From: an uncultured Candidatus Saccharibacteria bacterium
GTDB taxonomy: Bacteria; Patescibacteriota; Minisyncoccia; Phycocordibacterales; Phycocordibacteraceae
NCBI GenBank assembly: GCA_964590505.1
Contig: CAZPVV010000001.1
Location: 1 to 44,727 of the forward strand
Length of the DNA stretch: 44,727 nucleotides
Direction of reading: 5' to 3'
Each line of letters starts with the position of its first letter. The first letter of the stretch is position 1. Positions 1,845-39,147 of this stretch are shown in pieces. Under the pieces are notes generated by a model. It made no database searches. It saw only the letters and a program-made list of their open reading frames with translations, and had not been told where the DNA came from. The position numbers and the translations under genes are program-made.

Positions 1845-2287
1845 AGTTAGATGGTCATTCAAGGAGGTGTTCAGAAATGTGCTCCCCACCCTCTAGTCCT
1901 GAAAGGGAAGGTACTCGAACCTCTCGCAAGAGCTAAGTCGAGAAAGAGGAGAGAGTGGGGATGAGAAGCGCATTTCTTCACATCTATTTGCCAGAAAGGC
2001 AGTGCGTAGAAGGAAGGTCCGCAAATACCGTCCTTTCTAGGTACTTGGGGCTTATGCCCGACAACCCCTTTCGCCCGTTTTCCTTGTGAGGAGATCGGCT
2101 GGTCACAAAGGACTAACCTCCCTTTGCGACTAGAAATGTCCTCACAACAGAAGAGGAGTCATTTGATAACTGAATAGAAGGGAACCATGAGCGAAGGAGA
2201 GAGCGCTCGTGGTTCCTCCCATGCACCTTTTTGGGTGTGGGGGAGGGATCACCGCTGTGGTGGTTCTGTTAATAGAAGGAGAAGGTT
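1845..2287 (+). promoter_or_regulatory. structured leader RNA of about 440 nt containing three micro-ORFs (19, 42 and 34 codons)
   Basis: No ORF of 60 aa or more before 2209. A long-range helix pairs 1874-1894 with 1950-1976. A 13-bp stem pairs 2181-2193 with 2204-2216. There is a C(GCAA)G loop at 1925-1928. The micro-ORFs are 1877-1936 (SD AAGGAGG), 1961-2089 and 2187-2291. Confidence 0.45.
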
Positions 2288-3350
2288 ATGAACCTTCTAG
2301 TGATCGATGCCCGCTCGCGGGATCTGCGTTGCTGGATGGCCTCGGCCACCCAGTGTTTCCAGACCCGGGCGGTCTGGAAGGCCGAAGCACCATTGGTGCT
2401 TCGGTATGCGGCAGAAATCGGTTCTTTGCACCAACTGGTGCAAAGAACCGATGAGGGGGTGCAAGCCCTCTTCCCAGGACCAGTCTTGGTCCTGGGATCC
2501 TACCAGGCGGTAGGATCTGCTGGGTTCACGGAGACCTCCGTGAACCCGCACCTCCACGGGCTGACACCCGTGGAGGTGTACGGCATCCTTAGCCCCGCTG
2601 CTGCGGGTCTAGTCCGCTTTGGGGAGCCCATAACAGGGGTTCTTCTCAGTGGATTAGTCAAGGCCCGGCTTCTGCCGGGCCAACAAAGCAGCAACTGCCA
2701 GACGGCAGCTGCTGCGCGGGCGGCAGGCCGGCTTCTGCCGAGCCTTCTTCCTGTGGTCACTCTGGCAGAAGGCCAGAGTGACCGGGTCAGAGTATGGAAA
2801 CTCGAGGGGACCGAATGTCTCTTTGAGTTTCCAGAAGAACATCAGCCGGGCTTTGGTCCGGCTGACATCCTCCGCCGTTGGCTGGAGGACGCTGTCGTAC
2901 CCTACGGGGCACGACATGACGCCGGCGGCTACGGCCACGCGGCGCTCATTCTACGGAAGGCGCTTCGTCGCCTTCCGTGGGAGGTTCAAAGAGAGGCACT
3001 CGCCTCTCTTTTCAAGAACTTTCCTACCGAAAGGTGGGAAGAGGTCCATTTCGACGAGGTGGATGAATATTATTCCGCCTGCGACAGGCGGGGGATCTGG
3101 TTCATCGAGCCAGATCCAGAGGATCCCTGTGGGGTCCTCGTCGAGTCCCTTCGCGACGCGGAGGGAAACAGGAGACAGATCCGGCTTCGGCCGAATCTGT
3201 CTCCTGAGACGGAGGGTCTCTTCGTGGAGACCCTCCGTCAGGTTCTCATTGAGTATAAGGAGAACGGTTATGTGAAGTAGGTTGGTTTCCCGAGCGCACG
3301 GTTACGCGCTCGGGACTCCTATTTAGCTCACGACAATGGTGTCGTGAGCT
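2281..3350 (+). other. array of about 28 consecutive, non-repetitive stem-loops (stems 5-16 bp, loops 3-10 nt)
   Basis: Arms read directly. Examples: 2417-2432/2437-2452 (16 bp perfect), 3208-3220/3227-3239 (13 bp), 2549-2560/2567-2578 (12 bp), 2755-2766/2772-2783 (12 bp), 2522-2532/2537-2547 (11 bp). The fuller list is in the findings. Confidence 0.8.
2288..3280 (+). CDS. hypothetical 330-aa protein; coding status uncertain because the whole ORF coincides with the hairpin array
   Basis: SD GAAGGAGAAGG lies 3-4 nt upstream of the ATG. The ORF is long for this GC content. The C-terminal two thirds look protein-like. No motif recognised. Confidence 0.45.
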   Translation: MNLLVIDARSRDLRCWMASATQCFQTRAVWKAEAPLVLRYAAEIGSLHQLVQRTDEGVQALFPGPVLVLGSYQAVGSAGFTETSVNPHLHGLTPVEVYGILSPAAAGLVRFGEPITGVLLSGLVKARLLPGQQSSNCQTAAAARAAGRLLPSLLPVVTLAEGQSDRVRVWKLEGTECLFEFPEEHQPGFGPADILRRWLEDAVVPYGARHDAGGYGHAALILRKALRRLPWEVQREALASLFKNFPTERWEEVHFDEVDEYYSACDRRGIWFIEPDPEDPCGVLVESLRDAEGNRRQIRLRPNLSPETEGLFVETLRQVLIEYKENGYVK

Positions 3351-3366
3351 AACAGGGGGTTCTATC

Positions 3367-3738
3367 ATGGACATCGTTCTGAACCAGGGAGGAGAGGTTG
3401 CGGGTGCCTCCTCCTGGACGACGGGCTTCAAAGCCTACACCCGTTGCCGACCCGCTTTCTTCAGCGAGGAGCAAGTGCTCGCGCACGCGCTCAAACTGGA
3501 GGAAGAATGGGGGAGCAGGCACGCGCTCGCTTGGCTCGAACGGTGGTTCGACCGGCAGCGGTGCCTTGGGCAAGGACCCCGTTCTTGCCCACTCCAATGG
3601 GCTCGCGACAAACGTCGTGGGCCCATAGAGTTCTTACGCACTTCCTGTGTTTGCACATCCCTGCATCACTCTGACGGAGAAGAAATCTCTCTCCTCGGCC
3701 GTCATGCTGGTGCACGGGTTTGCGAACATAGGAGGTAA
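3367..3738 (+). CDS. hypothetical 123-aa protein
   Basis: SD-like AGGGGG lies 8 nt upstream. The stop is 2 nt before the next start. Several overlapping alternative frames in this GC-rich stretch make the call tentative. Confidence 0.4.
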   Translation: MDIVLNQGGEVAGASSWTTGFKAYTRCRPAFFSEEQVLAHALKLEEEWGSRHALAWLERWFDRQRCLGQGPRSCPLQWARDKRRGPIEFLRTSCVCTSLHHSDGEEISLLGRHAGARVCEHRR

Positions 3739-3740
3739 CA

Positions 3741-3923
3741 ATGTCGCAAAAGGTCTTCTGCCTGCTCACCATGGCCGTCGTTCTGCTGCTCTTCGCAACG
3801 TTCATGGCTTACGCGAGCTACCACGACTTCGGGAAGCTCGTCCCCCAGGCCATCTTCACCGTCGGCGCATTCGTCGTTGGTGCGGTGGCCGCCGTGGGGT
3901 TCATCTTCGTGAAGGAGGAATAA
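3741..3923 (+). CDS. small membrane protein, 60 aa, two predicted TM helices
   Basis: SD TAGGAGG lies 6 nt upstream. There are two hydrophobic segments (LLTMAVVLLLFATFMAYA and FTVGAFVVGAVAAVGFIF). A terminator follows. Confidence 0.6.
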   Translation: MSQKVFCLLTMAVVLLLFATFMAYASYHDFGKLVPQAIFTVGAFVVGAVAAVGFIFVKEE

Positions 3924-3935
3924 TCATGAAGAAGA

Positions 3936-3966
3936 ACAAAAACGCCCGCTTCGGTGGGCGTTTTTC
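3936..3966. terminator. bidirectional intrinsic terminator with a C(UUCG)G-capped stem
   Basis: aaaaacgcccgc ttcg gtgggcgttttt, flanked by an A-run and a T-run. It serves the island operon and the convergent gene that ends at 3985. Confidence 0.7.
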
Positions 3967-3984
3967 TATATTCAGATACCAAAC

Positions 3985-4788
3985 TCAATTCTCAACCCCA
4001 TACTCCCTATAGAAATCCTCTATCGGCGCAGACGCACGAAGCGGAAGCATGAGCGGTTCGGTCATGATGCTCGTGAGTGGTGCATCAGGCGGAAGAGTCT
4101 TTAAGCGTTCTGTAAGAACAGACGCTAGTTCTTTATTTAGTGTTCCGTCACTAGTGAGGAACTGACCCCAGAGCATGGTTCCTTTCTGCCAGGACTCTTC
4201 TTCTGTATTAGGTACAAGATGGTCTGTAAAACTAGCAGGGTAGAGTGCGCGGTACTCCTTACGGTTATATAGCCATGAGTTACCCGTCATAGTCGTCACA
4301 TCTGGGTGCTCAGCTTTCAGTGTGCGAACAGCATCAGCAATCTCAGAACGTCGTTGTAGAACCTTATCACTTTGTAGGGGGCCAGTTGGTCCATACTCTG
4401 CATTCACAAAATGCATCTGCGCCACTTTGGTATCAGGATCAAAGGTACAACTAGAACACCCAAAACGGTGTCCTTCTTGATAGGGAATAAGATCGGTGCG
4501 GGTCTCTTTCAAATACTTCTCATACGCAATCTCAAGAAAGTTATCTCTCGTTAAGTCAGGATGCTTTACATACGTGTCTTGCGCACGATCAAATCGGTGT
4601 ATGTTCTGGTGGATCATTGGTGCATAACTCTCGGACGCCATAACGAGTGACGTTTGGTTTCGCTCGGCCATCACCTCCGCAACGCTCAGCTGAAACGCAA
4701 AGAAGTCTTTCTCAATAGGAATCTCTTCTCGTGGTGTCCACCCCTCTTTAGAAAGAGCTTCAGCAGGTTTTGTGGGCATTCTCTCCAT
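3985..4788 (-). CDS. hypothetical protein, 267 aa
   Basis: Clean ORF. A TATACT box lies 8 nt upstream of the ATG on the minus strand, which looks leaderless. No family recognised. Confidence 0.6.
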   Translation of the reverse strand: MERMPTKPAEALSKEGWTPREEIPIEKDFFAFQLSVAEVMAERNQTSLVMASESYAPMIHQNIHRFDRAQDTYVKHPDLTRDNFLEIAYEKYLKETRTDLIPYQEGHRFGCSSCTFDPDTKVAQMHFVNAEYGPTGPLQSDKVLQRRSEIADAVRTLKAEHPDVTTMTGNSWLYNRKEYRALYPASFTDHLVPNTEEESWQKGTMLWGQFLTSDGTLNKELASVLTERLKTLPPDAPLTSIMTEPLMLPLRASAPIEDFYREYGVEN

Positions 4789-4804
4789 TGCCCCTCAGTA
4801 TAAA

Positions 4805-10081: not shown

Positions 10082-10119
10082 CGAATGAAAGGCATGCTCT
10101 GCGTTATACTTGAGAAAGC

Positions 10120-11871
10120 ATGCAAGTTTCAGAGAGGGAACTAAAAGAATTCATTATTGATTCCGGTCTTGTTGCCCGGAAGGATGTTGATGCTGCAGAA
10201 GCAACCGGCAAGGAGCGGAACCAGTCGGTGGGTGACATTCTCGTGTCACAAGGCTCTCTCTCCGAAGACGCACTCCGCCGCATTAAGGCATACGTGCTCG
10301 GTATCCCGTTCGTTAACCTCAAAGACAAGAAGATACCGTTTGAGATTCTCTCCCTCATCCCGGAGCCAATCGCCCGCACGCACAACATCATTGCTTTCAA
10401 GAAGGATGGCGGCTCGCTTGAGGTAGCGATGCTTGATACGGAGGATATGCCGTCCATTGACTCCATGAAGAAGAAGACGGGACTTAAGATTCTTCCTCGC
10501 TTGACCGACGACGAGTCCATCAAGCACGTATTGCTCCAGTACCAGAAGTCACTCAAAGAAGAGTTTGGTGACCTGATTGCGGGGGAAGCAGGCAAGCTCG
10601 CACTTGTGAAAGAGATTGCAGGAGACGATGCGTCTCAAGAGGACCTGAAGAAAATGGCAGAGGATCTGCCGATTGTACGCATTGTAGACACGCTTCTGCG
10701 TCACGCTATTTTGCAGGACGCGTCTGATATTCATATTGAGCCTGCAGAGCACGAAGTTATCGTGCGCTATCGCATTGACGGTATCCTGCACGACGCCATG
10801 ACGCTTCCGAAGAATGCGAGTGCTGGTATTACGGCGCGCATCAAAGTGCTTGCAAACCTCAAGCTTGATGAGAAGCGTCTTCCACAAGACGGCCGATTCA
10901 AGATGGAGACCGAACGCGACAAAGTGTCGTTCCGTGTGTCACTCCTTCCGGTCTACTACGGAGAGAAAGTGGTTATGCGTCTGCTTCGCGAAACAGGGGA
11001 GGGCTTCACCCTTGAAGTACTTGGTTTTCATGGAGAGAATCTTGAGCGTATTCATCACGCAACCAAACAAACAACGGGAATTATTTTGGTATCGGGCCCT
11101 ACCGGTTCTGGAAAGACGACCACGCTCTATACGATCCTGGATATTCTGAATACGCCTGACGTAAACATTTCAACGATTGAAGACCCGATTGAGTATCAGA
11201 TGAAGCGCGTGAACCAGACACAAGTGAATCCAACAATAGGATTCACGTTTGCAAACGGTCTTCGTGCACTTCTGCGTCAGGACCCCAACATCATCATGGT
11301 GGGGGAGATTCGCGATAGCGAGACTGCGGCGCTCGCGATTAACGCGGCACTCACCGGACACATTGTGCTCTCAACTATTCACACCAACTCAGCAACGGGC
11401 GCTATTCCCCGTCTTATTGATATGGGTGTGGAGCCATTTCTCTTGGTGTCTACGCTTCGGGCTGTGGTGGGTCAACGACTGGTTCGTCGTTTGTGTGAAG
11501 ACAAGGAGCAATACGGCTTAGACAAAGTTGAACGCAACAAAGTGGCTCCGGACGAGCACTTTATGGCCGCACTTGGCGCCCTTACCGAGGAGAAACTGGT
11601 GAAGGCGGGAACCAAAGTAGACGCACTTCCTTTTTATAGACCAAAGGCGGGAGGTGATTGTGAGGAAGGATACAAAGGACGTATGGGTATACACGAAGTA
11701 CTTACGGTCTCTCCTGCAATTCGTGAACTTATTCTCCATGGCGCTTCGGGCGATCAGATAGAAGCACAAGCACGCAAAGAAGGCATGCTCACGATGCTTG
11801 AGGACGGAATCTATAAAGCATCCCGTGGCATTACGTCACTTGAAGAAGTGTTACGTTCAGTCTCGGAGTAA
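10120..11871 (+). CDS. pilB: type IV pilus assembly ATPase (GspE/PilB family)
   Basis: T2SSE N-terminal domain, Walker A GPTGSGKTTT, and a tetracysteine-region remnant, at 583 aa. Confidence 0.9.
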   Translation: MQVSERELKEFIIDSGLVARKDVDAAEATGKERNQSVGDILVSQGSLSEDALRRIKAYVLGIPFVNLKDKKIPFEILSLIPEPIARTHNIIAFKKDGGSLEVAMLDTEDMPSIDSMKKKTGLKILPRLTDDESIKHVLLQYQKSLKEEFGDLIAGEAGKLALVKEIAGDDASQEDLKKMAEDLPIVRIVDTLLRHAILQDASDIHIEPAEHEVIVRYRIDGILHDAMTLPKNASAGITARIKVLANLKLDEKRLPQDGRFKMETERDKVSFRVSLLPVYYGEKVVMRLLRETGEGFTLEVLGFHGENLERIHHATKQTTGIILVSGPTGSGKTTTLYTILDILNTPDVNISTIEDPIEYQMKRVNQTQVNPTIGFTFANGLRALLRQDPNIIMVGEIRDSETAALAINAALTGHIVLSTIHTNSATGAIPRLIDMGVEPFLLVSTLRAVVGQRLVRRLCEDKEQYGLDKVERNKVAPDEHFMAALGALTEEKLVKAGTKVDALPFYRPKAGGDCEEGYKGRMGIHEVLTVSPAIRELILHGASGDQIEAQARKEGMLTMLEDGIYKASRGITSLEEVLRSVSE

Positions 11872-16932: not shown

Positions 16933-17346
16933 ATGACGTTGCAAGAGACTGCGCAAGGCAAGCCCCTCCCACACACGTTCGTGGACGGGCTTCGAGCTGA
17001 AATTTTGGAACGGTTTGAGCACTATTCTGGTTTTGAACATGTGCTGTGGACTAGGCGAGACATCATGTGTCCGGAAGGTCCCCAGTCAGAGGAGAGGCTT
17101 CCGAATGCTCGAGCACTGTCCCTCTATGCTCGTGATGCGCGTGGGCAGCACCGTTTTATGGCTGAATCGGGTCGGTGGTTTCGTACTCGGCTCATCGTAC
17201 GAGGTGTCTGCCACTACGACACACTCAAGTTGTCTCTCCACAACGACGAGTGGATGCTACCACCAGGGCTGATCGACCGCAAATTCTACGATCGGTGGGT
17301 ATGGTGCACGCAACTTGAGTTGGAGAAATACCTACGCACGGTGTAG
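16933..17346 (+). CDS. hypothetical protein (137 aa), SD-led orphan cassette
   Basis: SD GGGAGAAGGGTG lies directly upstream. GC is about 58% on a hand-counted line. It has its own terminator. No family recognised. Confidence 0.55.
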   Translation: MTLQETAQGKPLPHTFVDGLRAEILERFEHYSGFEHVLWTRRDIMCPEGPQSEERLPNARALSLYARDARGQHRFMAESGRWFRTRLIVRGVCHYDTLKLSLHNDEWMLPPGLIDRKFYDRWVWCTQLELEKYLRTV

Positions 17347-19692: not shown

Positions 19693-19738
19693 AGCTACAG
19701 CATACTCTACCTACTGACTCTGATACAATCCTCACACT

Positions 19739-21466
19739 ATGACTGGTGTTCCGGACGATATACGAGAGGCATTACGCTCCTTTGACGATTTCACCGCAGG
19801 CCTTCTTGCTCGCCGTGGTATCACGACGCACGAAGAGGCCGAAGCGTTTCTCTCACCCTCCTACGAAAAGCATCTCGGGGACCCGATGAAGATACTCAAC
19901 ATGCCTAAGGCAGCGGAGCGTATTGCGAAAGCGATAAGTACGGGCGAGCGTATCGCCGTGTGGAGTGATTACGATTGTGATGGTATCCCGGGAGGCGTTC
20001 TGTTCCACGACTTTCTGAAGAAGGCGAATGCGAACTTTGTGAACTACATTCCACACCGTCACGAAGAGGGGTTTGGACTAAACACGAAAGGTATTGATGA
20101 GTTACACCAGGATGGGGTCACTCTCATGATCACGATTGATTGCGGGATTGCAGACATTGAAGGTGTCGCGTATGCATCGTCTCTTGGCATTGATGTCATT
20201 GTTACCGACCACCACCTGCCGGGAGTGCTTCCGCCAGCGTATGCAATTGTTGATCCCAAACAGGAAGGTGAAACAAATGAGTTCCGTGATTTTTGTGGAG
20301 CCGGCCTTGCCTGGAAACTCGTGTGTGCCGTTTTGCAGGTCGGGTTTACCGGAAGAGAGAACATTCCTGTTGGATGGGAGAAGTGGTTGCTTGATATGGC
20401 AGGACTCGCCACCATTGCGGACATGGTTCCGCTTGTGGGAGAGAATCGCGTCATCGCGCGCTATGGATTATTGGTGATGAGAAAGTCTCCACGCCTTGGA
20501 CTGCAGATGTTGTGCAAGGTGGCGCGGGTGAATCAACGGTTCATAACAGAAGACGATGTTGGTTTCATGATTGCGCCTCGCGTGAACGCAGCGTCTCGGA
20601 TGGGTAACCCGCGTGACGCGTTTCGTCTCTTTACGACAACGGACGAAGTGGAGGCCGAAGCACTTGCCAAAGAACTTGAGCGCATCAATCGCTCACGACG
20701 AGCGTCTGCTGCCGCAATTACGCGCGCGGTACATGAGCGACTCGCAGAGCGAAAAGCAGAGGGGAAAGAAGTGCCCGGAGTTATTGCAATGGGAGATCCT
20801 GAGTGGCGACCCGGACTCCTAGGACTGGTGGCAAACACCATTGCAGAAGAGTATGAGCGCCCGGTATTTTTGTGGGGACGAGAGGGAACACTAAATGCGA
20901 AGGGTTCCTGTAGAGCGGGGAGGAAAGGTATGAATGTAGTGAAGCTCATGGAGCATGCAGAGAATACCTTTAAGGAGTTCGGCGGCCATGCAGCGTCCGG
21001 AGGGTTTACGCTACTAGAAGACGCAGTGTTTTCGTTTGAAGAGAAGATGAACGAAGCGTTGTTGCATGTGGTTCATCAGGGAGACGAGAAGGGGGAACAG
21101 GTTGTTGATGCAGAGGTCCACCCACATCAGGCTGACAAGAGACTACTTTCTTCGCTGGAGAAGTTTGCACCATTCGGAATGGGTAACCCGCGTCCCATAT
21201 TTATGTTTCGTGACGTCATGGTGACCGACGTGTCACACTTTGGAAAGTCTGAGGAGCATTTGCGTATACACGTTGCACGAGACCGAGATGGGTTTTCTAT
21301 TGAGACGATTGAAGCCATTTCATTTTTTGCAAAGCGAGAACTAGGAAAGGGTATGGAACGACTTGCAAGTGGAAGTACGGCAACTATTTATGCAAACCTA
21401 GAGCGCGATCAGTTTAAGAAAGGAACACCGGTGCGGTTACGAATGGTTGCTATTTCGCAGATGTGA
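19739..21466 (+). CDS. recJ: single-stranded-DNA-specific exonuclease RecJ
   Basis: DHH motifs (DYDCDG, TDHH) and DHHA1 (GGHAASGG), at 575 aa. Confidence 0.9.
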   Translation: MTGVPDDIREALRSFDDFTAGLLARRGITTHEEAEAFLSPSYEKHLGDPMKILNMPKAAERIAKAISTGERIAVWSDYDCDGIPGGVLFHDFLKKANANFVNYIPHRHEEGFGLNTKGIDELHQDGVTLMITIDCGIADIEGVAYASSLGIDVIVTDHHLPGVLPPAYAIVDPKQEGETNEFRDFCGAGLAWKLVCAVLQVGFTGRENIPVGWEKWLLDMAGLATIADMVPLVGENRVIARYGLLVMRKSPRLGLQMLCKVARVNQRFITEDDVGFMIAPRVNAASRMGNPRDAFRLFTTTDEVEAEALAKELERINRSRRASAAAITRAVHERLAERKAEGKEVPGVIAMGDPEWRPGLLGLVANTIAEEYERPVFLWGREGTLNAKGSCRAGRKGMNVVKLMEHAENTFKEFGGHAASGGFTLLEDAVFSFEEKMNEALLHVVHQGDEKGEQVVDAEVHPHQADKRLLSSLEKFAPFGMGNPRPIFMFRDVMVTDVSHFGKSEEHLRIHVARDRDGFSIETIEAISFFAKRELGKGMERLASGSTATIYANLERDQFKKGTPVRLRMVAISQM

Positions 21467-21513
21467 GGTATACTTCGCTAGTTCAATCATTTGTTTTTTT
21501 TGGAGGGAAGTTC

Positions 21514-21924
21514 ATGGTCAAAAGACCTCTCGAGGTCATCAAGGCGGAGTTGAAGATAGACTTCAACTCCCTGGACTGGCTGGCGGTTGCGTTAGAGTCA
21601 GCCGAACCCTTTAAGGGGGAGAACTGCAACGATAAGCAGCCGGGCTATGTTCCAGTTGTTCCGGCGTCGCAGGACGTGCTTCTCCTTCGAGGAGCGCTAC
21701 AACAACGCCGTGACCTGCGCCGGCAACTAGTCAACAACGGAGAGAAGAGGCAAAACGACGCTTCTATCCGGGCCCTAGAAGGGCTGCTCTGGAACTCGAT
21801 GCTCCACGCTATTGGGGATCGAGAAATTCATGGTGAGATGAAGCTCTGCAACATCGCAGGGCAAGTCTTTATCTCGGTCGCGAAGCCGCGCCGAATTAAG
21901 CCATCGTCCAGAGCGACGACGTGA
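21514..21924 (+). CDS. hypothetical protein (136 aa), SD-led orphan cassette
   Basis: SD TGGAGGGAAG lies 4 nt upstream of the ATG. I trimmed the track start. A GC-rich terminator follows. Confidence 0.5.
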   Translation: MVKRPLEVIKAELKIDFNSLDWLAVALESAEPFKGENCNDKQPGYVPVVPASQDVLLLRGALQQRRDLRRQLVNNGEKRQNDASIRALEGLLWNSMLHAIGDREIHGEMKLCNIAGQVFISVAKPRRIKPSSRATT

Positions 21925-21930
21925 ACAGTG

Positions 21931-21964
21931 AGGGGCTGGCGCCATGCGCCGGCCCCTTTGTTGT
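21931..21964 (+). terminator. intrinsic terminator
   Basis: aggggctggcg ccatg cgccggcccct, then tttgttgtt. Confidence 0.65.
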
Positions 21965-21977
21965 TATACTTGCAACT

Positions 21978-22403
21978 ATGCACTACACCCTTTATGCCGA
22001 TGGCGGAGCACGCGGGAACCCAGGGCCTGCCGGGGCGGGGGCGGTTGTTTTTGATACGATAGGGAAGCGCGTTGTAGAGGTGTCAGATTATCTTGGTATT
22101 GCGACCAACAACATTGCCGAGTACGAAGCGGTGCTTCGTGGACTTACTGCCCTCAAAGACGAGTTTGCGGAAGGGTTCTTTGATCATGTTCCTCTCACCA
22201 TAAAGATGGATAGCAAGTTGGTTATTGAGCAGTTGAAAGGAGGATACAAGGTGAAGCACCCTAACCTCGTTCCTCGATACCTCGAAGTAAAAAATATTAT
22301 CGCGCGGCACTTTCCGCATGTAATGTTTGTGCATGTGCCACGGGACGATAATGCAGATGCCGATCTCTTGGCTAATCGTGCGATGGATAAAGCACGAAGG
22401 TGA
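21978..22403 (+). CDS. rnhA: ribonuclease HI
   Basis: YADGGARGNPGPAGAGAV, NNIAEYEA and the DNADAD catalytic pattern. A TATACT box lies 7 nt upstream (looks leaderless). I trimmed the track start. Confidence 0.85.
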   Translation: MHYTLYADGGARGNPGPAGAGAVVFDTIGKRVVEVSDYLGIATNNIAEYEAVLRGLTALKDEFAEGFFDHVPLTIKMDSKLVIEQLKGGYKVKHPNLVPRYLEVKNIIARHFPHVMFVHVPRDDNADADLLANRAMDKARR

Positions 22404-24594: not shown

Positions 24595-24867
24595 ATGAAT
24601 CTTGCCAGCTGGGATGAATTCAGCGACAAGAACAAAGAGACAGCGACTGCCGTTAAGGCACACGCCGCCCATCTGTACCAGGAGGGCGCCGACAAGGCTC
24701 GACTGGATCCGAGATTGCAGGAGCTTTCTGAGATTCTTCGTCCGCTTCCGGCCGAGACCCTCCAATTGATTGGGTTGACGCCGGACTTCACGCCTGCCGA
24801 GTTGGTGGTGACCATTTTCACCATCGGCGGCCAAATGATCTTACGACTGGAACGTGGGGGCCACTAA
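24595..24867 (+). CDS. hypothetical protein (90 aa), SD-led orphan cassette
   Basis: SD GGTGGGGAG lies upstream. The stop codon sits in the loop of a 9-bp hairpin (24852-24877). Confidence 0.5.
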   Translation: MNLASWDEFSDKNKETATAVKAHAAHLYQEGADKARLDPRLQELSEILRPLPAETLQLIGLTPDFTPAELVVTIFTIGGQMILRLERGGH

Positions 24868-31519: not shown

Positions 31520-31555
31520 GTCCTCAGCTCCCACGGGGGAGTTTTCATTTACGAA

Positions 31556-31963
31556 ATGGCCACAATAAATCAACTCGCAAAGAAGCCTCGCAAGGACAAA
31601 GCCCGAAAGACCAAGGTCGTGGCTCTTGGACGTGGATTTAACACGCTTAAGAACCGCCCAACCTTCTATTCGGCTCCCTTTAAGCGCGGTGTGTGTACTA
31701 AAGTGACCACAAAGACCCCCCGCAAACCTAACTCAGCTATTCGTAAGATTGCCCGTGTTCGCCTCACCAACGGTATGGAGGTTACTGCCTACATCCCGGG
31801 AGAGGGACACAACCTCCAGGAGCACTCAGTGGTACTCCTTCGTGGTGGACGTGTGAAGGATATTGGTGTGCAGTACACCGTGGTTCGCGGAAAGCTTGAT
31901 ACCGCCGGTATTGATAAGCGCCGCCGTGGTCGTTCTCGTTATGGAGCTAAGAAGCCCAAATAA
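31556..31963 (+). CDS. rpsL: 30S ribosomal protein S12
   Basis: MATINQL..., [22 protein letters not shown]. Confidence 0.97.
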
Positions 31964-31971
31964 TCTTTCAT

Positions 31972-32442
31972 ATGCGCCGACCAATCAAAAATAAGCCTGT
32001 CCGCCGTCCGGACATTCAATACAAGTCAGAGGCTATCTCTCGCTTCATCAACACCGTCATGCTTGATGGTAAGAAGGACACTGCCCGTGCTGTGGTGTAC
32101 GACGCTCTTGATCTGATCTCAAAGCAGGAGGGAAACCCAGATCCCCTTGAGACATTTGAGACCGCAATCCGAAACGTTGCTCCTCTTATGGAAGTTCGCT
32201 CACGTCGCGTTGGTGGTGCTAACTACCAGGTGCCTCGCGAAGTTCCCCAGCAGCGCCGTGTGTCTCTTGCATACCGATGGCTTATCAACGCAGCTCGCGC
32301 TCGCAAAGGAAAGCCTATGGCCCAAAAGCTTGCTGACGAGATCATGCTCGCGGTGAAGAACGAAGGAACGGCAATCAAGAAGAAGGACGACATGCACCGC
32401 ATGGCTGAAGCCAACAAAGCATTCGCACACTTCGCTTGGTAA
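31972..32442 (+). CDS. rpsG: 30S ribosomal protein S7
   Basis: FINTVMLDGKK, EVRSRRVGGANYQVP. Confidence 0.97.
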   Translation: MRRPIKNKPVRRPDIQYKSEAISRFINTVMLDGKKDTARAVVYDALDLISKQEGNPDPLETFETAIRNVAPLMEVRSRRVGGANYQVPREVPQQRRVSLAYRWLINAARARKGKPMAQKLADEIMLAVKNEGTAIKKKDDMHRMAEANKAFAHFAW

Positions 32443-32465
32443 TTTAGAGTTTGATAAAAGGAAGA

Positions 32466-32499
32466 ACGGCGGCCCGATGAGGGTCGCCGTCTTTCGTTT
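32466..32499. terminator. intrinsic terminator (10-bp stem with one G-U), shared by rpsG and the convergent 91-aa gene
   Basis: acggcggccc gatga gggtcgccgt, then ctttcgttt. The arms are nearly identical to the terminator at 17351. Confidence 0.65.
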
Positions 32500-32505
32500 G
32501 GATGC

Positions 32506-32781
32506 TTAGCGTAGGCCAGGTGCTATCTCGTGCAGATTGATGAATCCAGCACGAGCAAGGTCTGCGTGCCCGTCACACATCCAGATTTCCTCAGTATCTG
32601 GGTTGAACACAAAGGTGAAGGGCAAGTCTAGATATTCGACCTTGGCATAAAGCACGTGATAGCTGTCTCGCGAAACGCGAATGAACACGGACCGCATAGC
32701 GTTGTAGAGGCGCGGGTCCTGTACGAGACTGAATTCAAAAGCATCCAGAACGATCTCAAGTAGAGATCTGGGCCTTTCCAT
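32506..32781 (-). CDS. hypothetical protein (91 aa), SD-led orphan
   Basis: SD GGGAGGGAA lies 5 nt upstream of the ATG (minus strand). I trimmed the track start. Confidence 0.5.
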   Translation of the reverse strand: MERPRSLLEIVLDAFEFSLVQDPRLYNAMRSVFIRVSRDSYHVLYAKVEYLDLPFTFVFNPDTEEIWMCDGHADLARAGFINLHEIAPGLR

Positions 32782-32918
32782 TACATTCCCTCCCGAACCC
32801 AAACTACCACTCCTACACTAAAGGGCAAAGCTTCTAGGCAATTCGCGAACAAAGGTATATGGTTGTCCTCGGACTGTGCGATAGTGCGCGGTTCTTCATA
32901 ACCTATGAGGTCGAAACG

Positions 32919-33770
32919 ATGGACGGATCACCCGAGATCACGGAGTCGTCGGGCGTCTCGCTCGACTTCTCCAAGCTATTCTCCAAGAAGACGTTCTTGA
33001 TCGGCGCAACGTGCCAGGTCAATATTGCCTTTGCGGGCATGCACGAAGAGCCCAAAAGCGATTCCAGGCTCGCGAACCAAGTGCTGTATGGTGAGCGAGT
33101 TCAGGTGTTGCTGTCGGCGCCCGGTTGGGTTCGTGTTCGTGCTCTGCACGACATGTACGTTGGCTGGGTGGATGAAAACTATCTCAGCACCAACTGCTTC
33201 ACGCCGACTCGCAGGGTCTTTGTCGCGAGAACTCCGGTTCGCCGGAAGCCTGACGACAAAGTCACCGCGGATGCGCTCCTGGGCATGAACTCCCTAGTGC
33301 GCATTGTGGAAGAACGTGGCTGCTTCGCACTTGCTGATGGGCTTGGCTGGGTTCCTGCCCGGCATCTCATGCCTGTTGGCGAGTTTGAACGCGATCACGC
33401 ACTCATCGCCCGGCGCTTTGTTGGTCTGGCCTATGGCTGGGGCGAACGTAGCGCGTACGGCGGTGACTGTTCTGCTGTCGTGCAACACGCGATTCGCGCT
33501 ACGGGACGAAAGTTTCCGCGCGACGCCAAAGATCAGGAGAAAGTTCGCGATGCCCATCGCGTTCAATCTGAACCTGATGGCAGCTACCGCTTCATGTACG
33601 GCGACGTCGTGTTCTGGAAAGGGCATGTTGGCATCGTGCTTGATCGTGGGCAGTTCCTTCACGCGGCCGGCGACGACACCAACATGACGGTTATTGAAGA
33701 CCTTTCCAAGGTCATTGAAACCCGTCGTCGTCACGGCTATGGTGAGGTAACGTCGGTTCTTCGGCTCTGA
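32919..33770 (+). CDS. NlpC/P60 (C40) peptidase with an N-terminal SH3b-like domain and no obvious signal peptide
   Basis: SH3b-like LYGERVQVLLSAPGWVRV...GWV. Catalytic Cys context GGDCSAVV, and His in KGHVGIVL. Confidence 0.75.
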   Translation: MDGSPEITESSGVSLDFSKLFSKKTFLIGATCQVNIAFAGMHEEPKSDSRLANQVLYGERVQVLLSAPGWVRVRALHDMYVGWVDENYLSTNCFTPTRRVFVARTPVRRKPDDKVTADALLGMNSLVRIVEERGCFALADGLGWVPARHLMPVGEFERDHALIARRFVGLAYGWGERSAYGGDCSAVVQHAIRATGRKFPRDAKDQEKVRDAHRVQSEPDGSYRFMYGDVVFWKGHVGIVLDRGQFLHAAGDDTNMTVIEDLSKVIETRRRHGYGEVTSVLRL

Positions 33771-33794
33771 TTCTACACTCGCCTATAAAGGTGC

Positions 33795-33824
33795 AAAGGC
33801 GCGGACCCAACATCCGCGCCTTTT
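33795..33824 (+). terminator. intrinsic terminator
   Basis: aaaggcgcgga cccaaca tccgcgcctttt. Confidence 0.7.
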
Positions 33825-33883
33825 CATATATTCCTTGAGGCGTATACTCCTTTTGGTACTAACTGGTCACAAGGGGAAACACC

Positions 33884-34111
33884 ATGACCACTGGTCAAAA
33901 AGGGGGCTTCGCGTCCATGAACCCGGAGCTTCAGCGTGCAATCGCACGAAAGGGTGGTGCTTCGGTCCCGGCCGAGAAGCGCTCCTTCTCGCAGAATCGC
34001 ACTCTGGCTGCCGAAGCCGGCCGCAAGGGAGGGCTCGTGCGGCACCGAAAATCCGAAGCTCCTCGCCCCCAAAACGACTTCGGTGGCGGGGAAGGTCTCG
34101 GGAGCAAGTAA
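33884..34111 (+). CDS. KGG-repeat general stress protein (75 aa)
   Basis: GFASMNPELQRAIARKGG and AAEAGRKGG repeats, typical of the stress-induced KGG motif family. Confidence 0.75.
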   Translation: MTTGQKGGFASMNPELQRAIARKGGASVPAEKRSFSQNRTLAAEAGRKGGLVRHRKSEAPRPQNDFGGGEGLGSK

Positions 34112-34133
34112 CGCCAGCACCTTCTGTTCTAGG

Positions 34134-34175
34134 CTGCCGCGTCTCCACTTTGAGGCGCGGCAGTCTTTCTTGCCT
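34134..34175 (+). terminator. intrinsic terminator
   Basis: ctgccgcg ... cgcggcag (8 bp), then a T-rich run. Confidence 0.6.
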
Positions 34176-34240
34176 TTTCTGCCGTAAAAACGTATCTTAC
34201 AGGTAACGCCCTTGCGGCTTTTATTTTTATTTCTGGCTCT

Positions 34241-36388
34241 ATGCAACGCGATTATCCACTAGAAAAAGTGCGCAACTTCGGTATCGTCGCCCACGTCGAC
34301 GCGGGAAAAACAACCACCTCTGAGCGTGTGCTCTATTACACTGGCTCCCAACACAAAATTGGAGAGGTGCATGAGGGAGAAACCACCACAGACTGGATGG
34401 AACAGGAGCGTGAGCGCGGTATCACTATTACTGCCGCCGCTATTACCTGTTTCTGGACCCGCACCAGCGAGGCCGACAAGAAGGACATGGCGAAGAAGTT
34501 CCGCTTCAACGTTATTGATACCCCAGGACACATTGACTTCACCGCCGAGGTGAAGCGCTCTATGCGTGTGCTTGATGGTGCTGTTGTCGTGTTTGACGGT
34601 GTTGCAGGAGTGGAGCCGCAATCAGAAACAAACTGGCGCTACGCTGACGAAGCTGGCGTGCCACGCATTTGTTTCATCAACAAACTAGACCGTACTGGCG
34701 CGTCTTTTGAGGACTCATACAAGTCCATACTTGACCGTCTTTCAAAGAAGGCAGTGCGCATGCAGATTCCCATTGGCGCTGAAGGAGATTTTGAGGGAGT
34801 CGTAGATCTTCTTGAAATGAAGTCATACACCTTTGCTGGAAAGATGGGTGACGAGGTGATTCCTGGAGAGATTCCAGCGCACCTTATGGACGACGCGAAG
34901 ATGTACCGCGCAGAGCTCCTTGAGCGCATTGTGGAGCACGATGAGGCCCAGATGACCGCATTCTTTGAAGGCAACGAGCCATCTATTGATGAGCTTAAGG
35001 CAACGCTTCGTAAAGCCGTTATCGCAAACGAAATCTTCCCGGTGTACACGGGTTCAGCACTCAAGAACAAAGGTGTGCAGATTGTGCTTGATGCCGTTGT
35101 TGACTACCTTCCGTCACCGCTAGACCTTCCTCCAGTGAAGGGTATTAACCCAAAGACCGGTGAGGAGATTGAGCGCGCAGCGTCTGATAACGAGCCGTTC
35201 ACCGCGCTTGCCTTCAAACTTCAGACCGACCCATTCGTGGGAGCTCTTACCTTCTTCCGCGTATATGCCGGAAGCGTAACTGCTGGTTCCTACGTGTACA
35301 ACGCAAACTCAGGCACTAAGGAGCGTGTCGGACGTATCGTTCGCCTTCAGGCTGATAAGCGTGAGGAAGTGGAGCAGGTATTTACCGGAGAGATCGCCGC
35401 TATGGTGGGACTCAAAGACACCAAGACCTCACACACACTCTGTGACGAAGCGAATCCAATCATTCTGGAGACCATTAAGTTCCCAGAGCCTGTGGTTTCT
35501 CTTCGCATTGAGCCTGCGACCAAGGCTGACCAGGAGAAGATGGGTATGGCACTCAAGAAGTTGTCTGACGAAGACCCAACCTTCAAGGTGTCTACCGACG
35601 ATGAGACCAATGAAACCATTATCGCGGGTATGGGTGAGCTTCACCTTGAGATTTTGGTTGACCGTATGAAGCGTGAATTCGGCGTTACTGCAAATGTGGG
35701 CAAGCCACAGGTGGCATACCGTGAGACCATTCTCGGTTCTGCTGACGCTGAAGGTAAGTACATCAAGCAGACGGGAGGTAAAGGTCAGTACGGCCACGTG
35801 AAGATTAAGTTGAAGCACCTAGAGCCAGTTGATCCAGAGGCAAAGGTTGCTAAGAACGTTACCCGTGAAGAGCACTTTGAGTTCATCAACAACATCAAGG
35901 GAGGTGCTATTCCTGGTGAGTACATTGGTGCAGTTGAGAAGGGTATGCGTGAGTCACTCTCTCGCGGTATCCTCGCTGGCTACCCAATCGTTGACGTGTC
36001 CGTTGATCTCTATGACGGTTCGTACCACGATGTGGACTCCAGTGAAATCGCCTACAAGATCGCGGCATCTATGGCCTTCCAGGAAGCAGCAGCCAAAGCA
36101 AAGCCGGTTATTCTTGAGCCTATTATGCGCGTTGAGGTTGTTATCCCTGAGCAGTTCATGGGTGACATCACGGGCTCACTCTCAGGAAAGCGCGGAGCTA
36201 TTGAGAGCATGGAGGAGCGTGGTATGAACAAGGTGGTTAACGCCAAGGTGCCACTTTCTGAAATGTTCGGCTACACCACCACCCTTCGTTCTATGACGGA
36301 AGGACGTGGAAGCATGACGATGGAGTTTGATCACTACGAAGTGGTTCCATCAAACGTGGCGACTGAGATTATTGCGTCTCGCAAATAA
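34241..36388 (+). CDS. fusA: elongation factor G
   Basis: AHVDAGKTTT, DTPGHIDF, NKLDR, at 715 aa. Confidence 0.97.
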   Translation: MQRDYPLEKVRNFGIVAHVDAGKTTTSERVLYYTGSQHKIGEVHEGETTTDWMEQERERGITITAAAITCFWTRTSEADKKDMAKKFRFNVIDTPGHIDFTAEVKRSMRVLDGAVVVFDGVAGVEPQSETNWRYADEAGVPRICFINKLDRTGASFEDSYKSILDRLSKKAVRMQIPIGAEGDFEGVVDLLEMKSYTFAGKMGDEVIPGEIPAHLMDDAKMYRAELLERIVEHDEAQMTAFFEGNEPSIDELKATLRKAVIANEIFPVYTGSALKNKGVQIVLDAVVDYLPSPLDLPPVKGINPKTGEEIERAASDNEPFTALAFKLQTDPFVGALTFFRVYAGSVTAGSYVYNANSGTKERVGRIVRLQADKREEVEQVFTGEIAAMVGLKDTKTSHTLCDEANPIILETIKFPEPVVSLRIEPATKADQEKMGMALKKLSDEDPTFKVSTDDETNETIIAGMGELHLEILVDRMKREFGVTANVGKPQVAYRETILGSADAEGKYIKQTGGKGQYGHVKIKLKHLEPVDPEAKVAKNVTREEHFEFINNIKGGAIPGEYIGAVEKGMRESLSRGILAGYPIVDVSVDLYDGSYHDVDSSEIAYKIAASMAFQEAAAKAKPVILEPIMRVEVVIPEQFMGDITGSLSGKRGAIESMEERGMNKVVNAKVPLSEMFGYTTTLRSMTEGRGSMTMEFDHYEVVPSNVATEIIASRK

Positions 36389-36407
36389 GATCAGTGCGTC
36401 GTGTACA

Positions 36408-36434
36408 CAAAACCGCCCTTGATGGGCGGTTTTG
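36408..36434 (+). terminator. intrinsic terminator
   Basis: aaaaccgccc ttgat gggcggtttt. Confidence 0.75.
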
Positions 36435-36492
36435 TTGTATGTGGTGACACTTCTATCCCGTCTGTACGTCTTCTGTGATATCGTTTGACTCT

Positions 36493-37026
36493 ATGAACTG
36501 GAAACTATCTGTTGGTATTGTTGCAGTCGTTATTCTCGGTGGTGTTGGGGTGTGGTGGCTATCAAGTCAGCCAAAACCGCCCGTGACGCCTGATCAGATC
36601 ATCAAAGAGGCTAAGAACACTCCTATCCCGGTTGGCGCGCGTGCGATTGATGCGTTTGCCTTTGTGGACGAGAGTGGGGTATACCTCAAGTCCTCATTCA
36701 GCACTTCAACGGTGAAAATACCTGACGCTGACCCGGATACCTTCCGCGCCGTGACCTCCTTTACGGAGTATTCTGACCAGGCAGTTCTTGATTTCTGTAA
36801 GGGGCCCGGCACCTACAGCGTGTACGCCGATAAGAAAAAGACCTATTTCTTCCAGTTTTGGATGACCCCAACCTTCTCCAAAACCAAGATTGAGGTCATA
36901 AAGACCTTGAATGCTGACGCGGTTGCCCCTACGGGAGCTCATTCCTTCACGGATGGGGTAGCAACACTCAAGCTCGGCTACACGTTTGCCACTACAACCT
37001 GTGAATTCAACCTAGAATCGCTGTAG
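36493..37026 (+). CDS. hypothetical membrane-anchored/secreted protein (177 aa) inserted between fusA and tuf
   Basis: N-terminal TM segment WKLSVGIVAVVILGGVGVWWL. I trimmed the track start. No confident family. Confidence 0.55.
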   Translation: MNWKLSVGIVAVVILGGVGVWWLSSQPKPPVTPDQIIKEAKNTPIPVGARAIDAFAFVDESGVYLKSSFSTSTVKIPDADPDTFRAVTSFTEYSDQAVLDFCKGPGTYSVYADKKKTYFFQFWMTPTFSKTKIEVIKTLNADAVAPTGAHSFTDGVATLKLGYTFATTTCEFNLESL

Positions 37027-37227
37027 GTTCTTGACCTCGCCCAAACTAGCGTGTACCTTAGTACATAACGCGAGATACGGCGCTCTTTTCAATGTTCCCT
37101 TTCTACAGAGAGGGTGGAACTGGTAGAAGTCGCTGCGCGGGTATACCGCCAACGCCTTGGTCGCCTGCCTAAAGCAGGCAGGCGCGGCGGCAAGTTAACA
37201 ACTTAGCTACCAGTAATTTTAGAACGT

Positions 37228-38430
37228 ATGGCAGATGCATTTGATCGCAGCAAGCCGCACATGAACGTGGGCACCATCGGCCACGTTGACCACGGCAAAA
37301 CGACGCTTACTGCGTCTATCTTGAACGTTCTTAACCTGAACGCAGCAGCAGGCTACAAGGCCCGCGCTGAGAAGGTTGAGAACATTGACAACGCTCCAGA
37401 GGAAAAGGCGCGTGGTATTACCATTGCCCTTCACCACTCAGAGTACGAGTCACCAAACCGTCACTACGCACACATTGATGCGCCAGGACACGCAGACTAC
37501 ATCAAGAACATGATCACCGGTGCTGCCCAGATGGATGGCGCAGTACTTGTGGTTGCAGCAACTGACGGCGCAATGCCTCAGACCCGTGAACACATCCTTC
37601 TTGCAAAGCAGGTGGGTGTGCCTAAGCTCATCGTCTTCCTCAACAAGGTGGACATGGTGGACGATAAGGACATGGTGGACCTCGTTGAAGAGGAAATCCG
37701 TGAACTTTTGACCAAGCAGGGCTTTGATGGAGCTACAACTCCGGTCATCAAGGGATCAGGTCTTAAGGCGCTTGAGGCGACCAGCGCAGACGACGAGTGG
37801 GCTCTTAAGGTGAAGGAACTCGTGGACACTATGGACACGTACTTCCCACAGCCTGAGCGTGATCTTGATAAGCCATTCCTTATGCCTATTGAGGACATCT
37901 TCTCAATTGAAGGACGCGGAACGGTTATCACGGGACGTATTGAGCGCGGCATCATCAAGGTTGGTGAGGAAGTTGAGATTGTCGGCCTTCAGCCAACAAC
38001 CAAGACGACCGTTACCGGTATTGAGATGTTCAACAAGCAGCTTCAGGAGGGTCAGGCCGGCGACAACGCAGGAATCCTTCTTCGTGGTACGAAGAAAGAG
38101 GACGTGCATCGCGGTCAGGTTCTTGCGAAGACTGGTTCCGTAACTCCTCACACTGAGTTTGAGGCAGAGGTATACATCCTTTCTAAGGATGAGGGTGGTC
38201 GTCACACACCATTCTTCTCTGGCTACAAGCCTCAGTTCTACGTCCGTACAACAGACGTGACAGGTGAGGTAACCCTTCCAGAAGGAAAGGAAATGGTTAT
38301 GCCAGGCGACACTGTTACCTTCAAGGTAAAGCTTACGGCGCCTATCGCACTTGAGGAAAACTTCCGTTTCTCCGTTCGTGAGGGTGGCAAGACCGTCGGT
38401 GCTGGTGTGGTGACGAAGATCGTCGCGTAA
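37228..38430 (+). CDS. tuf: elongation factor Tu
   Basis: [22 protein letters not shown], at 400 aa. Confidence 0.98.
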
Positions 38431-38443
38431 GTCTCTTACTCGT

Positions 38444-38800
38444 ATGGCTACCACCGCGAAGAAGACAACGAAAAAGGAGGCACTCCCTGCCGGCGAGTCA
38501 AAGCTTCGCATTCGTGTGCGTGCCTACGAGCACAAGATCCTTGACCTCTCGGTTAAGCAGATCATGGACACGGCGAACCGCTTTGACGCCACGATTGTGG
38601 GCCCTGTGCCACTCCCAACGGAAATTAAGCGTTGGACCGTGAACCGCTCAACGTTCGTCCACAAGGACGCACGTGAGCAGTTTGAAATGCGCATCCACAA
38701 GCGTCTCATTGATATCATCTCGCCAAACCCCAAGGTTATTGAGGCTCTCACGAACCTCTCTCTTCCTTCCGGAGTGACGATTGATGTGAAGATGATCTAA
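38444..38800 (+). CDS. rpsJ: 30S ribosomal protein S10 with a Lys-rich N-terminal extension
   Basis: LRIRVRAYEHKILD..., TVNRSTFVHKDAREQFEMRIHKRLIDI. Confidence 0.95.
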   Translation: MATTAKKTTKKEALPAGESKLRIRVRAYEHKILDLSVKQIMDTANRFDATIVGPVPLPTEIKRWTVNRSTFVHKDAREQFEMRIHKRLIDIISPNPKVIEALTNLSLPSGVTIDVKMI

Positions 38801-38811
38801 GCGAAGAACGT

Positions 38812-38839
38812 AAAACCGCCCCAGAGATGGGGCGGTTTT
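38812..38839 (+). terminator. intrinsic terminator directly after rpsJ
   Basis: aaaaccgcccc agagat ggggcggtttt. Confidence 0.75.
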
Positions 38840-38898
38840 GCTATTTGACACAATTGTCTTTGTATGTATAATATTTGGGAAATTAATAGGAGGGCTGA

Positions 38899-39147
38899 AT
38901 GCTTTGGTTCTTGCGCTGGGTTTGGTCACGACCCTTTGAGTTGGCCGAGTTTTTTCAGATCAAGGAGGAACTGAAGGCCGAAGTTACGGTTACGATCAAC
39001 GGGATTCCGGCTCACGAGTGGGCCCGGCTTCTCAAGGACGAGGCCTATGAGAAGACTATCCAGTTGATGGATCGTCTGGAAGAGCTGAGGCACAGCTTGG
39101 GGCCTATTTCCGAACTTGAGAAGGAGGTCTTCAGCTTCTTTGGCTGA
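38899..39147 (+). CDS. hypothetical protein (82 aa), SD-led orphan cassette between rpsJ and rplC
   Basis: SD TAGGAGGG lies 5 nt upstream of the ATG. A terminator follows. Confidence 0.5.
   Translation: MLWFLRWVWSRPFELAEFFQIKEELKAEVTVTINGIPAHEWARLLKDEAYEKTIQLMDRLEELRHSLGPISELEKEVFSFFG

Follow-up and report, generated by a model that had tools for sequence, protein, structure and literature searches.

Window and Gene Content

The 44.7-kb window considered here (the whole stretch of 44,727 nucleotides, nt) is contig C1, CAZPVV010000001.1, of the assembly GCA_964590505.1, a metagenome-assembled genome (MAG) of 587 kb in 75 contigs, with a GC content of 0.50 and a completeness of 89%. The organism belongs to the Candidate Phyla Radiation (CPR, Patescibacteria), being a "Kaiserbacteria"-like MAG of the Parcubacteria/Paceibacteria. 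The window carries pilB/pilC, tpiA-pgk, recJ-rnhA and the str/S10 ribosomal gene block, with small, mostly ORFan open reading frames (ORFs) set between these conserved genes. The present work deals with the starts of the two gene sets. The pairing of a Shine-Dalgarno (SD) motif with the anti-SD of the 16S rRNA is the textbook route of bacterial initiation; the core genes of the window have no SD motif and carry, in many cases, a -10 promoter box directly before the start codon, while a class of accessory ORFs is led by canonical SD motifs, in a lineage with a 16S rRNA that no longer carries the canonical anti-SD.

All core genes read cleanly with genetic code 11, and an alternative code was thus ruled out; the Rfam and tRNA scans of the window found nothing. 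The genes of the whole assembly were called with a home-made hexamer model, which gave 700 genes, 570 of them confident. The SD 5-mers GGAGG and AGGAG were scored at 3-12 nt from the start, and the leaderless-type box was defined as TANNNT at 4-9 nt. The relatives were represented by 93 loci, comprising 13 same-genus str/S10 loci and 80 recJ loci.

Starts of the Core Genes

None of the core starts described as SD-less by the first-pass annotation of the window has a motif of the GGAGG, AGGAG or GGAG type at a spacing of 3-12 nt, and the -10-like boxes quoted in it are present before recJ, rnhA and the minus-strand genes starting at 4788 and 43333, with one more found before pilB (Table 1). The ORF listed for rnhA from the GTG at 21921 is an upstream extension of the true gene. 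The TATACT before the lineage-specific gene at 42977..43333 suggests that accessory genes can be leaderless too. The rpsL start had been left as ambiguous, with the run GGGGGAG before it; this run is no SD, since it forms the 3' arm of a hairpin with a T-run behind it and stands 15 nt away from the ATG. The hairpin (CUCCC/GGGAG, 31526-31555, 12 nt before the ATG) looks like a terminator or attenuator, and a hairpin with a T-run is visible upstream of rpsL in the same-genus relatives as well.

Throughout the genome, 285 starts were taken as unambiguous, i.e., the first start codon of the ORF with no alternative nearby. In these, G is depleted between -13 and -4, T(-12), A(-11) and T(-7) stand out, and T is favoured at -1, which points to a -10 box placed for transcription from the start codon itself. 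TANNNT precedes 33.7% of them and the SD 5-mers 1.8%, the corresponding values for random or internal ATGs of the genome being 4.5-6.6% and 2.2-3.4%; the SD 5-mers at core starts (1.2-1.8%) are therefore at the background level, and the genome-wide check proposed by the first-pass annotation did not find SD use to be common in core genes. With the same script, 65 annotated starts of E. coli showed SD 5-mers in 25%, SD 4-mers in 71% and TANNNT in 5%. Among 418 orthologous core starts of the relatives, only one has an SD 5-mer and 275 (66%) have TANNNT. The box is kept gene by gene, namely before 72 of the 72 rnhA, 59 of the 60 tpiA and 61 of the 72 recJ orthologues, so that the leaderless-type architecture is conserved for each gene. 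The position of the -10 box implies that the core mRNAs would be leaderless.

SD-Led ORFs as a Class

In order to avoid the selection bias of a hand-picked list, every ATG outside the confident genes of the assembly was scored. A non-overlapping ORF of at least 60 amino acids (aa) is opened by 33 of the 90 ATGs preceded by GGAGG or AGGAG and by 392 of the 2915 without an SD (p=5e-8), with a spacing of mostly 5-8 nt. The same holds for the related loci, whose 93 sequences contain 114 variable gaps between core genes (107 kb in all) with counts of 52/103 and 666/3160 (p=1e-10); 43 of the 52 spacings there are 5-8 nt, and the distribution is flat for ATGs opening short ORFs. An unbiased enumeration of 5-mers upstream of the gap ORFs ranks GGAGG (8.5x) and AGGAG (6.7x) first. 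A terminator, i.e., a hairpin with a T-run, follows 18 of the 33 SD-led ORFs (55%) and only 10 of 600 random windows.

These counts bear on the plainest explanation, according to which the motifs are G-runs that stand by chance before spurious ORFs in GC-rich non-coding or pseudogenised DNA and were picked out by the first-pass annotation. Some facts agree with it: the case at 1877 is a 19-codon ORF, random ORFs are longer and G-runs commoner in GC-rich DNA, some of the listed SDs are weak (AGGGGG, AAGGGG), and some SD-led ORFs of the genome-wide set are junk-like, with strongly negative hexamer scores. However, the spacing peak confined to long ORFs, the two enrichments, the frequent terminators, the homologues of four orphans (O2, O5, O6 and O9) and the purifying selection on two of these (O5 and O6; see below) argue against it. 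Chance is thus largely refuted as an account of the whole class and appears very improbable.

The composition of the class is also distinct. The elevated GC content ascribed earlier to the orphans is real in this genome: GC at third codon positions (GC3) is 0.638±0.118 in the SD-led ORFs against 0.504±0.064 in core genes (p=1e-10) and 0.518 in the SD-less ORFs of the same regions, and core genes have a hexamer score of 0.38, the SD-led ORFs one close to 0. A consistent GC excess of the SD-led ORFs over their host genomes is not seen in the relatives. The window orphans are absent at the syntenic slot in the 13 same-genus genomes and in the 80 wider relatives; the slots between rpsG and fusA, fusA and tuf, rpsJ and rplC, rplB and rpsS, and recJ and rnhA are variable, and those of each relative hold different ORFs, often SD-led.

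Such features would be expected if the SD-led genes were decaying imports whose donors use the SD (for instance a host bacterium, a phage or a member of the CPR with an anti-SD), with SDs persisting as relics not yet eroded. The atypical composition, the absence of these ORFs from the syntenic slots of same-genus genomes and the fall of SD frequency as codon usage turns native all speak for this explanation, as do the patchy distribution of O2 and of its TrmB-like partner and the decay-like contrast between the AAAGG of the NlpC/P60 gene in the window and the AGGAGG of its homologue in a related locus. Against it, searches for mobility genes, flanking repeats and phage families gave nothing. 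Pfam domains occur in only 4 of the 55 SD-led ORFs of the window and the relatives, and Pfam and PHROGs revealed no mobility or clear phage signal among these 55. A phage origin was considered and rejected, since the PHROG matches are limited to a few members, one of the families being a kinase, which is consistent with the single histidine-kinase member identified by Pfam. A vehicle with flanking repeats or of the miniature inverted-repeat transposable element type was likewise rejected, the only repeats among non-coding regions being of ~80 nt at ~80% identity, which are presumably tRNA genes.

16S rRNA Tail and the Anti-SD

In this lineage, the 16S tail reads ...GGAACAUAUCC... in place of ...GGAUCACCUCC. 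The 3' ends of seven same-genus genomes (...GCUGCUCGUGGAACAUAUCCAAU..., compared with ...GGAUCACCUCCUUA in E. coli) all read GGA(A/U)CAU(A/U)UCC, and four other families of the same order have different tails again, likewise without CCUCC; CACCUCC is found in none of the 11 recovered genus and order ends. A displaced anti-SD behind a 3'-terminal rRNA insertion was considered and rejected, there being no conserved CCUCC within 1.5 kb downstream of 16S and, in two genus members, no CCUCC at all in this stretch. A phylum sample of 401 genomes yielded 242 with the 16S 3' anchor; CACCUCC follows it at the expected distance in 178 of the 242, in 5 of 11 of the same class and in none of four of the same order. 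The ~74% of anchored Patescibacteria that keep the anti-SD are possible donors for the imports discussed above. One genome of the sample, a 1.1-Mb member of the Patescibacteria, has 37 copies of the anchor AGTCGTAACAAGG, with CACCTCC after 26 of them, which suggests that the 16S 3' end has given rise to a dispersed repeat or that the assembly is anomalous here.

The loss of the anti-SD motif was described in a subgroup of Parcubacteria that overlaps the group lacking uL1 (Tsurumaki et al. 2022, RNA 28:1041; PMC9297842). As far as the available text of that study goes, the present lineage resembles this subgroup in the genus and order 16S ends without CCUCC(U), in the missing uL1 and in taxonomic position; the losses of rRNA and ribosomal protein elements are its topic, and SD-keeping genes, the dominance of leaderless starts and SD-led accessory cassettes are not described in the same text. 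In the whole assembly (89% complete), uL1 (PF00687) had no match, compared with matches in 14 of 14 control genomes, and the protein is likely absent. The prfB gene (contig C10, ~2013-2879), located directly downstream of a tRNA gene, has no programmed +1 frameshift site but a single open frame, a short N-terminus and the SPF motif; such a site is lacking in many bacteria, and this is a weak read-out of anti-SD function. Internal SD 5-mers of coding sequences, assessed against synonymous-codon shuffles, are only mildly avoided in this genome (observed/expected 0.88, z -4.6), with 0.52 in E. coli and 0.50 in G241, an anti-SD-bearing genome of the Patescibacteria. The weak avoidance and the prfB structure are weaker pointers toward the anti-SD loss. 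Judged by its relatives, this very genome would probably lack the anti-SD. A tail of this kind cannot pair with GGAGG, and in its presence the motif cannot act by canonical SD/anti-SD pairing. An SD co-evolved with the mutated tail (GGAUA/UUGGA) was sought and dismissed, because it is not enriched upstream of the gap ORFs.

That the motif is canonical and not matched to the mutated tail has another possible meaning, namely that GGAGG is a control site for a small RNA with a CCUCCU loop or for an RNA-binding protein gating the flexible genes, and not a ribosome-binding site; the persisting mild avoidance of GGAGG/AGGAG in coding sequences agrees with this. However, no conserved CCUCCU element was found within 1.5 kb of pth in the 13 same-genus genomes (in this genome, pth lies at a contig end), the scan of non-coding CCUCC sites of this genome revealed no convincing small RNA, and Rfam gave no match in the window. 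Such a gating site therefore appears distinctly unlikely. The best candidate of the scan was a hairpin in the leader of uvrA (contig C20, 2470-2521), which has a TATAAT promoter and a short leader, with CCUGCC/GGGCAGG closing a CCUCCA loop just before the ATG.

The anti-SD-bearing CPR genomes G241 and G560 had been intended as a positive control for SD use, a role that passed to E. coli because core SD use is rare in them too: SD 5-mers precede 5.6% of the core starts in G241 (loci L124-L133) and 1.9% in G560 (loci L115-L123). Outside the confident genes, SD-preceded ATGs open long ORFs in 21 of 32 cases against 10.8% in G241 (p=1e-12) and in 6 of 20 against 8% in G560 (p=0.0045). Since G241 avoids internal SD 5-mers as strongly as E. 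coli, its ribosome evidently reads the SD, and in both genomes the anti-SD appears to serve mainly accessory ORFs. The two classes of start proposed by the first-pass annotation thus hold genome-wide, in the 93 related loci and in these two genomes. A split common also to the anti-SD-bearing Patescibacteria indicates that carrying an SD is part of how the flexible-genome cassettes of the CPR are built, and not the sign of a recent import from a high-GC donor outside the CPR.

Orphan Genes and Cassettes of the Window

Nine of the ten SD-ATG pairs reported earlier were found in place and open ORFs of 60-330 codons; the tenth, at 1877, is not credible. The claim of a textbook SD on every orphan is justified for those starting at 2288, 3741, 21514, 32781 (minus strand) and 38899, and only weaker G-runs precede those at 3367, 16933, 24595 and 33884. 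Nor is every GC-rich orphan SD-led, the GC-rich NlpC/P60 gene at 32859 having only AAAGG. The lineage-specific genes at 36493, 43333, 25622 and 28573 (the last three on the minus strand), of ordinary or low GC, have no SD, and all except the first have a -10 box. Pfam domains were found among the orphans and their neighbours only in O9 and in the adjacent SH3 and NlpC/P60 gene.

Table 1. Gene starts, orphan ORFs and cassettes of the window
Feature	Positions	Strand	Description
Micro-ORF	1877..1936	+	19 codons behind AAGGAGG; not a credible gene; in a 590-nt ORF-free GC-rich stretch (1701-2287)
O2	2288..3280	+	330-aa ORFan, GC 0.60, SD AGAAGGAGAAGG; divergent from TrmB-like regulator (900-1700, minus strand)
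O3	3367..3738	+	123 aa, GC 0.60, weak SD AGGGGG, 7 nt spacing
O4	3741..3923	+	60-aa membrane-like ORF, GC3 0.85, SD TAGGAGG at 5 nt
Core-composition gene	3985..4788	-	TATACT 8 nt before ATG; leaderless type
pilB start	10105..10122	+	TATACT, 9 nt, ATG; no SD
O5	16933..17346	+	137-aa ORFan, GGGAGAAGGGTG before ATG; inserted upstream of tpiA
recJ start	19724..19741	+	TACAAT, 9 nt, ATG; leaderless type, no SD
O6 cassette	21447..21958	+	ORF 21514-21924 (136 aa); promoter TTGCTA-16-TATACT 21447-21474
rnhA start	21965..21980	+	TATACT, 7 nt, ATG at 21978
O7	24595..24867	+	90-aa ORFan, GGTGGGGAG 6 nt before ATG
str/S10 block	31556..44726	+	rpsL, rpsG, fusA, tuf, rpsJ, rplC-D-W-B, rpsS, rplV, rpsC; no gene with SD; interrupted by accessory inserts
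O8	32506..32781	-	91-aa ORFan, GGGAGGG 6 nt before ATG; rpsG-fusA insert
O9 cassette	33821..34174	+	KGG-repeat stress protein ORF 33884-34111, AAGGGG
O10 cassette	38845..39198	+	ORF 38899-39147 (82 aa), between rpsJ and rplC
Lineage-specific gene	42977..43333	-	TATACT 7 nt before ATG; no SD

Several orphans are self-contained units. In the O6 cassette, the promoter is followed by a leader of ~33 nt with GGAGGG at 21502-21507, the ORF, a 13-bp terminator (21930-21958) and, directly after it, the leaderless rnhA promoter. The O10 cassette has a perfect TTGACA-16-TATAAT promoter (38845-38872), a ~20-nt leader with TAGGAGG and a 12-bp terminator (39171-39198), and the O9 cassette shows a promoter-like TTTTCA-16-TATACT (33821-33848) and a terminator-like hairpin (34159-34174).

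The evidence of selection comes from O5 and O6, which both have full-length, same-slot orthologues located on short metagenome contigs, with identities of 84-85% and 54% for the two genes together. The orthologue of O5 is 84% identical, with a ratio of nonsynonymous to synonymous substitution rates (dN/dS) of 0.16; 20 nt of its leader are invariant at a dS of 0.62, and the adjoining hairpin changes by compensatory substitutions. For O6, dN/dS is 0.19-0.24, and the 47-nt promoter-leader differs at 2-3 positions at a dS of ~1.6. Both ORFs and their leaders are thus under purifying selection, promoter and leader being nearly invariant at dS 0.5-1.6. In other accessory families, the L052/L060/L066 family of the recJ/rnhA slot has preserved GGGAGG in spite of differences at 10 of 18 flanking positions, and GGAGG and GGGGG are kept or interconverted in further pairs; in the NlpC/P60 gene mentioned above, the motif has apparently decayed. 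That orthologous cassettes keep the motif points to some remaining role of the leader.

O2 has four distant homologues (at most 35% identity) among 5.8 billion proteins, and no relative of it was found in the donor search of 185,579 species genomes. One homologue, with 34% protein identity, is found on a contig from a soil metagenome; it too is transcribed divergently from a TrmB-like regulator, in a cluster of GC-rich SD-led ORFs, and its leader reads AGAAGGAGAUGGU-AUG, compared with AGAAGGAGAAGGUUAUG in the window. Another, in genome G151 from a different family of the same anti-SD-less order, is TrmB-paired at a native GC of 0.39, its AGGAG being 6 nt away from the ATG; G151 and also locus L026 thus contain the TrmB/O2 module, in which the spacing of AGGAG is 5-6 nt.

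As a side observation, this module, in which a leaderless TrmB-like regulator is divergent from an SD-led ORFan of 306-549 aa, occurs in three distant lineages (window 900-3923; L026 7407-12000; L028 397-3433) and is patchy, TrmB being found in 2 of 40 same-genus genomes. O3 gave two small matches besides repeat matches in a collection of 1.84 billion cluster representatives of ~15 billion proteins; a motif of ~30-40 residues of O3 recurs in giant repetitive proteins of 3883 aa (20 stretches) and 2572 aa (8 stretches).

These data bear on the decaying imports. No close homologue from a donor lineage was found for O2, O5 and O6 among the 5.8 billion proteins or for O3 among the representatives; O5 and O6 match same-clade orthologues only. 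The taxonomy of orphan matches, which the first-pass annotation had proposed to assign, could be followed as far as metagenome proteins; four contigs were retrieved for O2, O5 and O6, and each of them is either CPR-like or from the same clade. Besides the missing mobility signals, the hypothesis has to face the vertical inheritance of O5 and O6, with dN/dS ~0.2 and leaders changing far below the synonymous rate, and the O2 homologue of G151, which keeps its SD at native GC in an anti-SD-less order; it would explain the conservation by a short residence or by repeated acquisition. Decaying imports are therefore rather unlikely, with a larger share of probability left to them than to the gating site. 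The recent import from an SD-using, higher-GC donor, as originally proposed, is weakly supported: composition and patchiness fit it, while the lack of donor homologues, the vertical O5 and O6 and the GC content in relatives do not. Its own counter-test, orphans with core-like signatures and vertical conservation, gave a divided answer, the composition being different and O5 and O6 yet vertically inherited.

The str and S10 operons are split by accessory inserts at 32443-34240, 36475-37026, 38801-39527 and 42168-43363, including two minus-strand genes between rplB and rpsS; the gene at 42168-42971 shares 40-46% identity with its counterpart in the three nearest relatives. The terminators after rpsG and rpsJ mean that the downstream ribosomal genes need promoters of their own.

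A Probable Two-Tier Genome

The reading that we favour, and hold to be probable, is a two-tier architecture in which the leader of the cassettes is still functional by a non-canonical route. The first tier would be the conserved core (ribosomal proteins, EF-G and EF-Tu, pili, glycolysis, recJ, rnhA), transcribed from -10 boxes 6-9 nt before the ATG into leaderless mRNAs, with the operon-internal core genes starting without any SD. The second would be a flexible pool, with a fast turnover, of small, mostly ORFan and often membrane-like genes in variable slots between the core genes. Several of them are autonomous units, in which a promoter is followed by a 20-35-nt leader, with its GGAGG-type motif 5-8 nt ahead of the ATG, and the ORF by a terminator. 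The GGAGG leader may act on these leadered mRNAs, in initiation or control, through a reader other than the 16S tail. More specifically, and only tentatively, it may be proposed that in anti-SD-less Parcubacteria the leader is read by a protein, another rRNA segment or a trans-acting RNA and provides a dedicated expression channel for accessory genes apart from the leaderless core. The separately regulated translational class suggested by the first-pass annotation is a possible description and fits the data better than import does; in a lineage without the canonical anti-SD, an SD-led class is paradoxical rather than merely regulated.

Several points weigh against the favoured reading. The MAG has no 16S gene, and its anti-SD status is judged from relatives only. 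Atypical composition and absence from close relatives are what decaying imports would show too, and the SD frequency drops from 6% to 0.5% as the native hexamer score rises. Few accessory families are common to several genomes, and about six of them underlie the judgement on SD conservation; in O6 the whole leader is conserved and not just GGAGGG, so that selection on the SD is not separable from that on the promoter and leader. With a home-made gene caller, some SD-led ORFs of the genome-wide lists are surely spurious.

Known systems resemble this architecture in part. The 'group C' of GeneMarkS-2 (Actinobacteria, Deinococcus-Thermus) combines leaderless and SD-led genes, keeps the anti-SD and uses the SD in many core genes, especially in operons. 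The present genome is similar in that many genes have a -10 box directly before the start and a second gene set has the SD; however, its core genes within operons lack an SD, the SD set essentially coincides with the flexible genome, and the anti-SD is lost in the lineage. In Bacteroidia, such as Flavobacterium johnsoniae, the CCUCC tail is kept but occluded by ribosomal proteins, and a few genes such as rpsU keep the SD; these bacteria are not known to be predominantly leaderless, and their SD-bearing minority consists of conserved regulatory cases. The bulk of SD-less genes with a small minority of strong SDs is common to both, whereas here the anti-SD sequence itself is replaced and the minority is made up of ORFan cassettes. 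Phage morons are autonomous units of promoter, ORF and terminator between conserved genes, to which O6, O9 and O10 are comparable as self-contained units between syntenic genes, with a composition unlike that of their neighbours. In contrast to morons, the cassettes are located in a cellular chromosome, even inside ribosomal protein operons, and no prophage context or PHROG signal was found for them.

The autonomous cassettes inside the str/S10 operons bear on the transcription of these operons. For the annotation of such genomes, gene callers based on ribosome-binding-site models will mis-start or miss genes, and the SD split offers a simple sequence marker separating core from flexible genes in CPR MAGs. 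A canonical SD that stays on flexible genes after the loss of the anti-SD, apparently under selection, would mean for these bacteria either a new mode of reading the motif or an influx of genes that sustains a dead signal.

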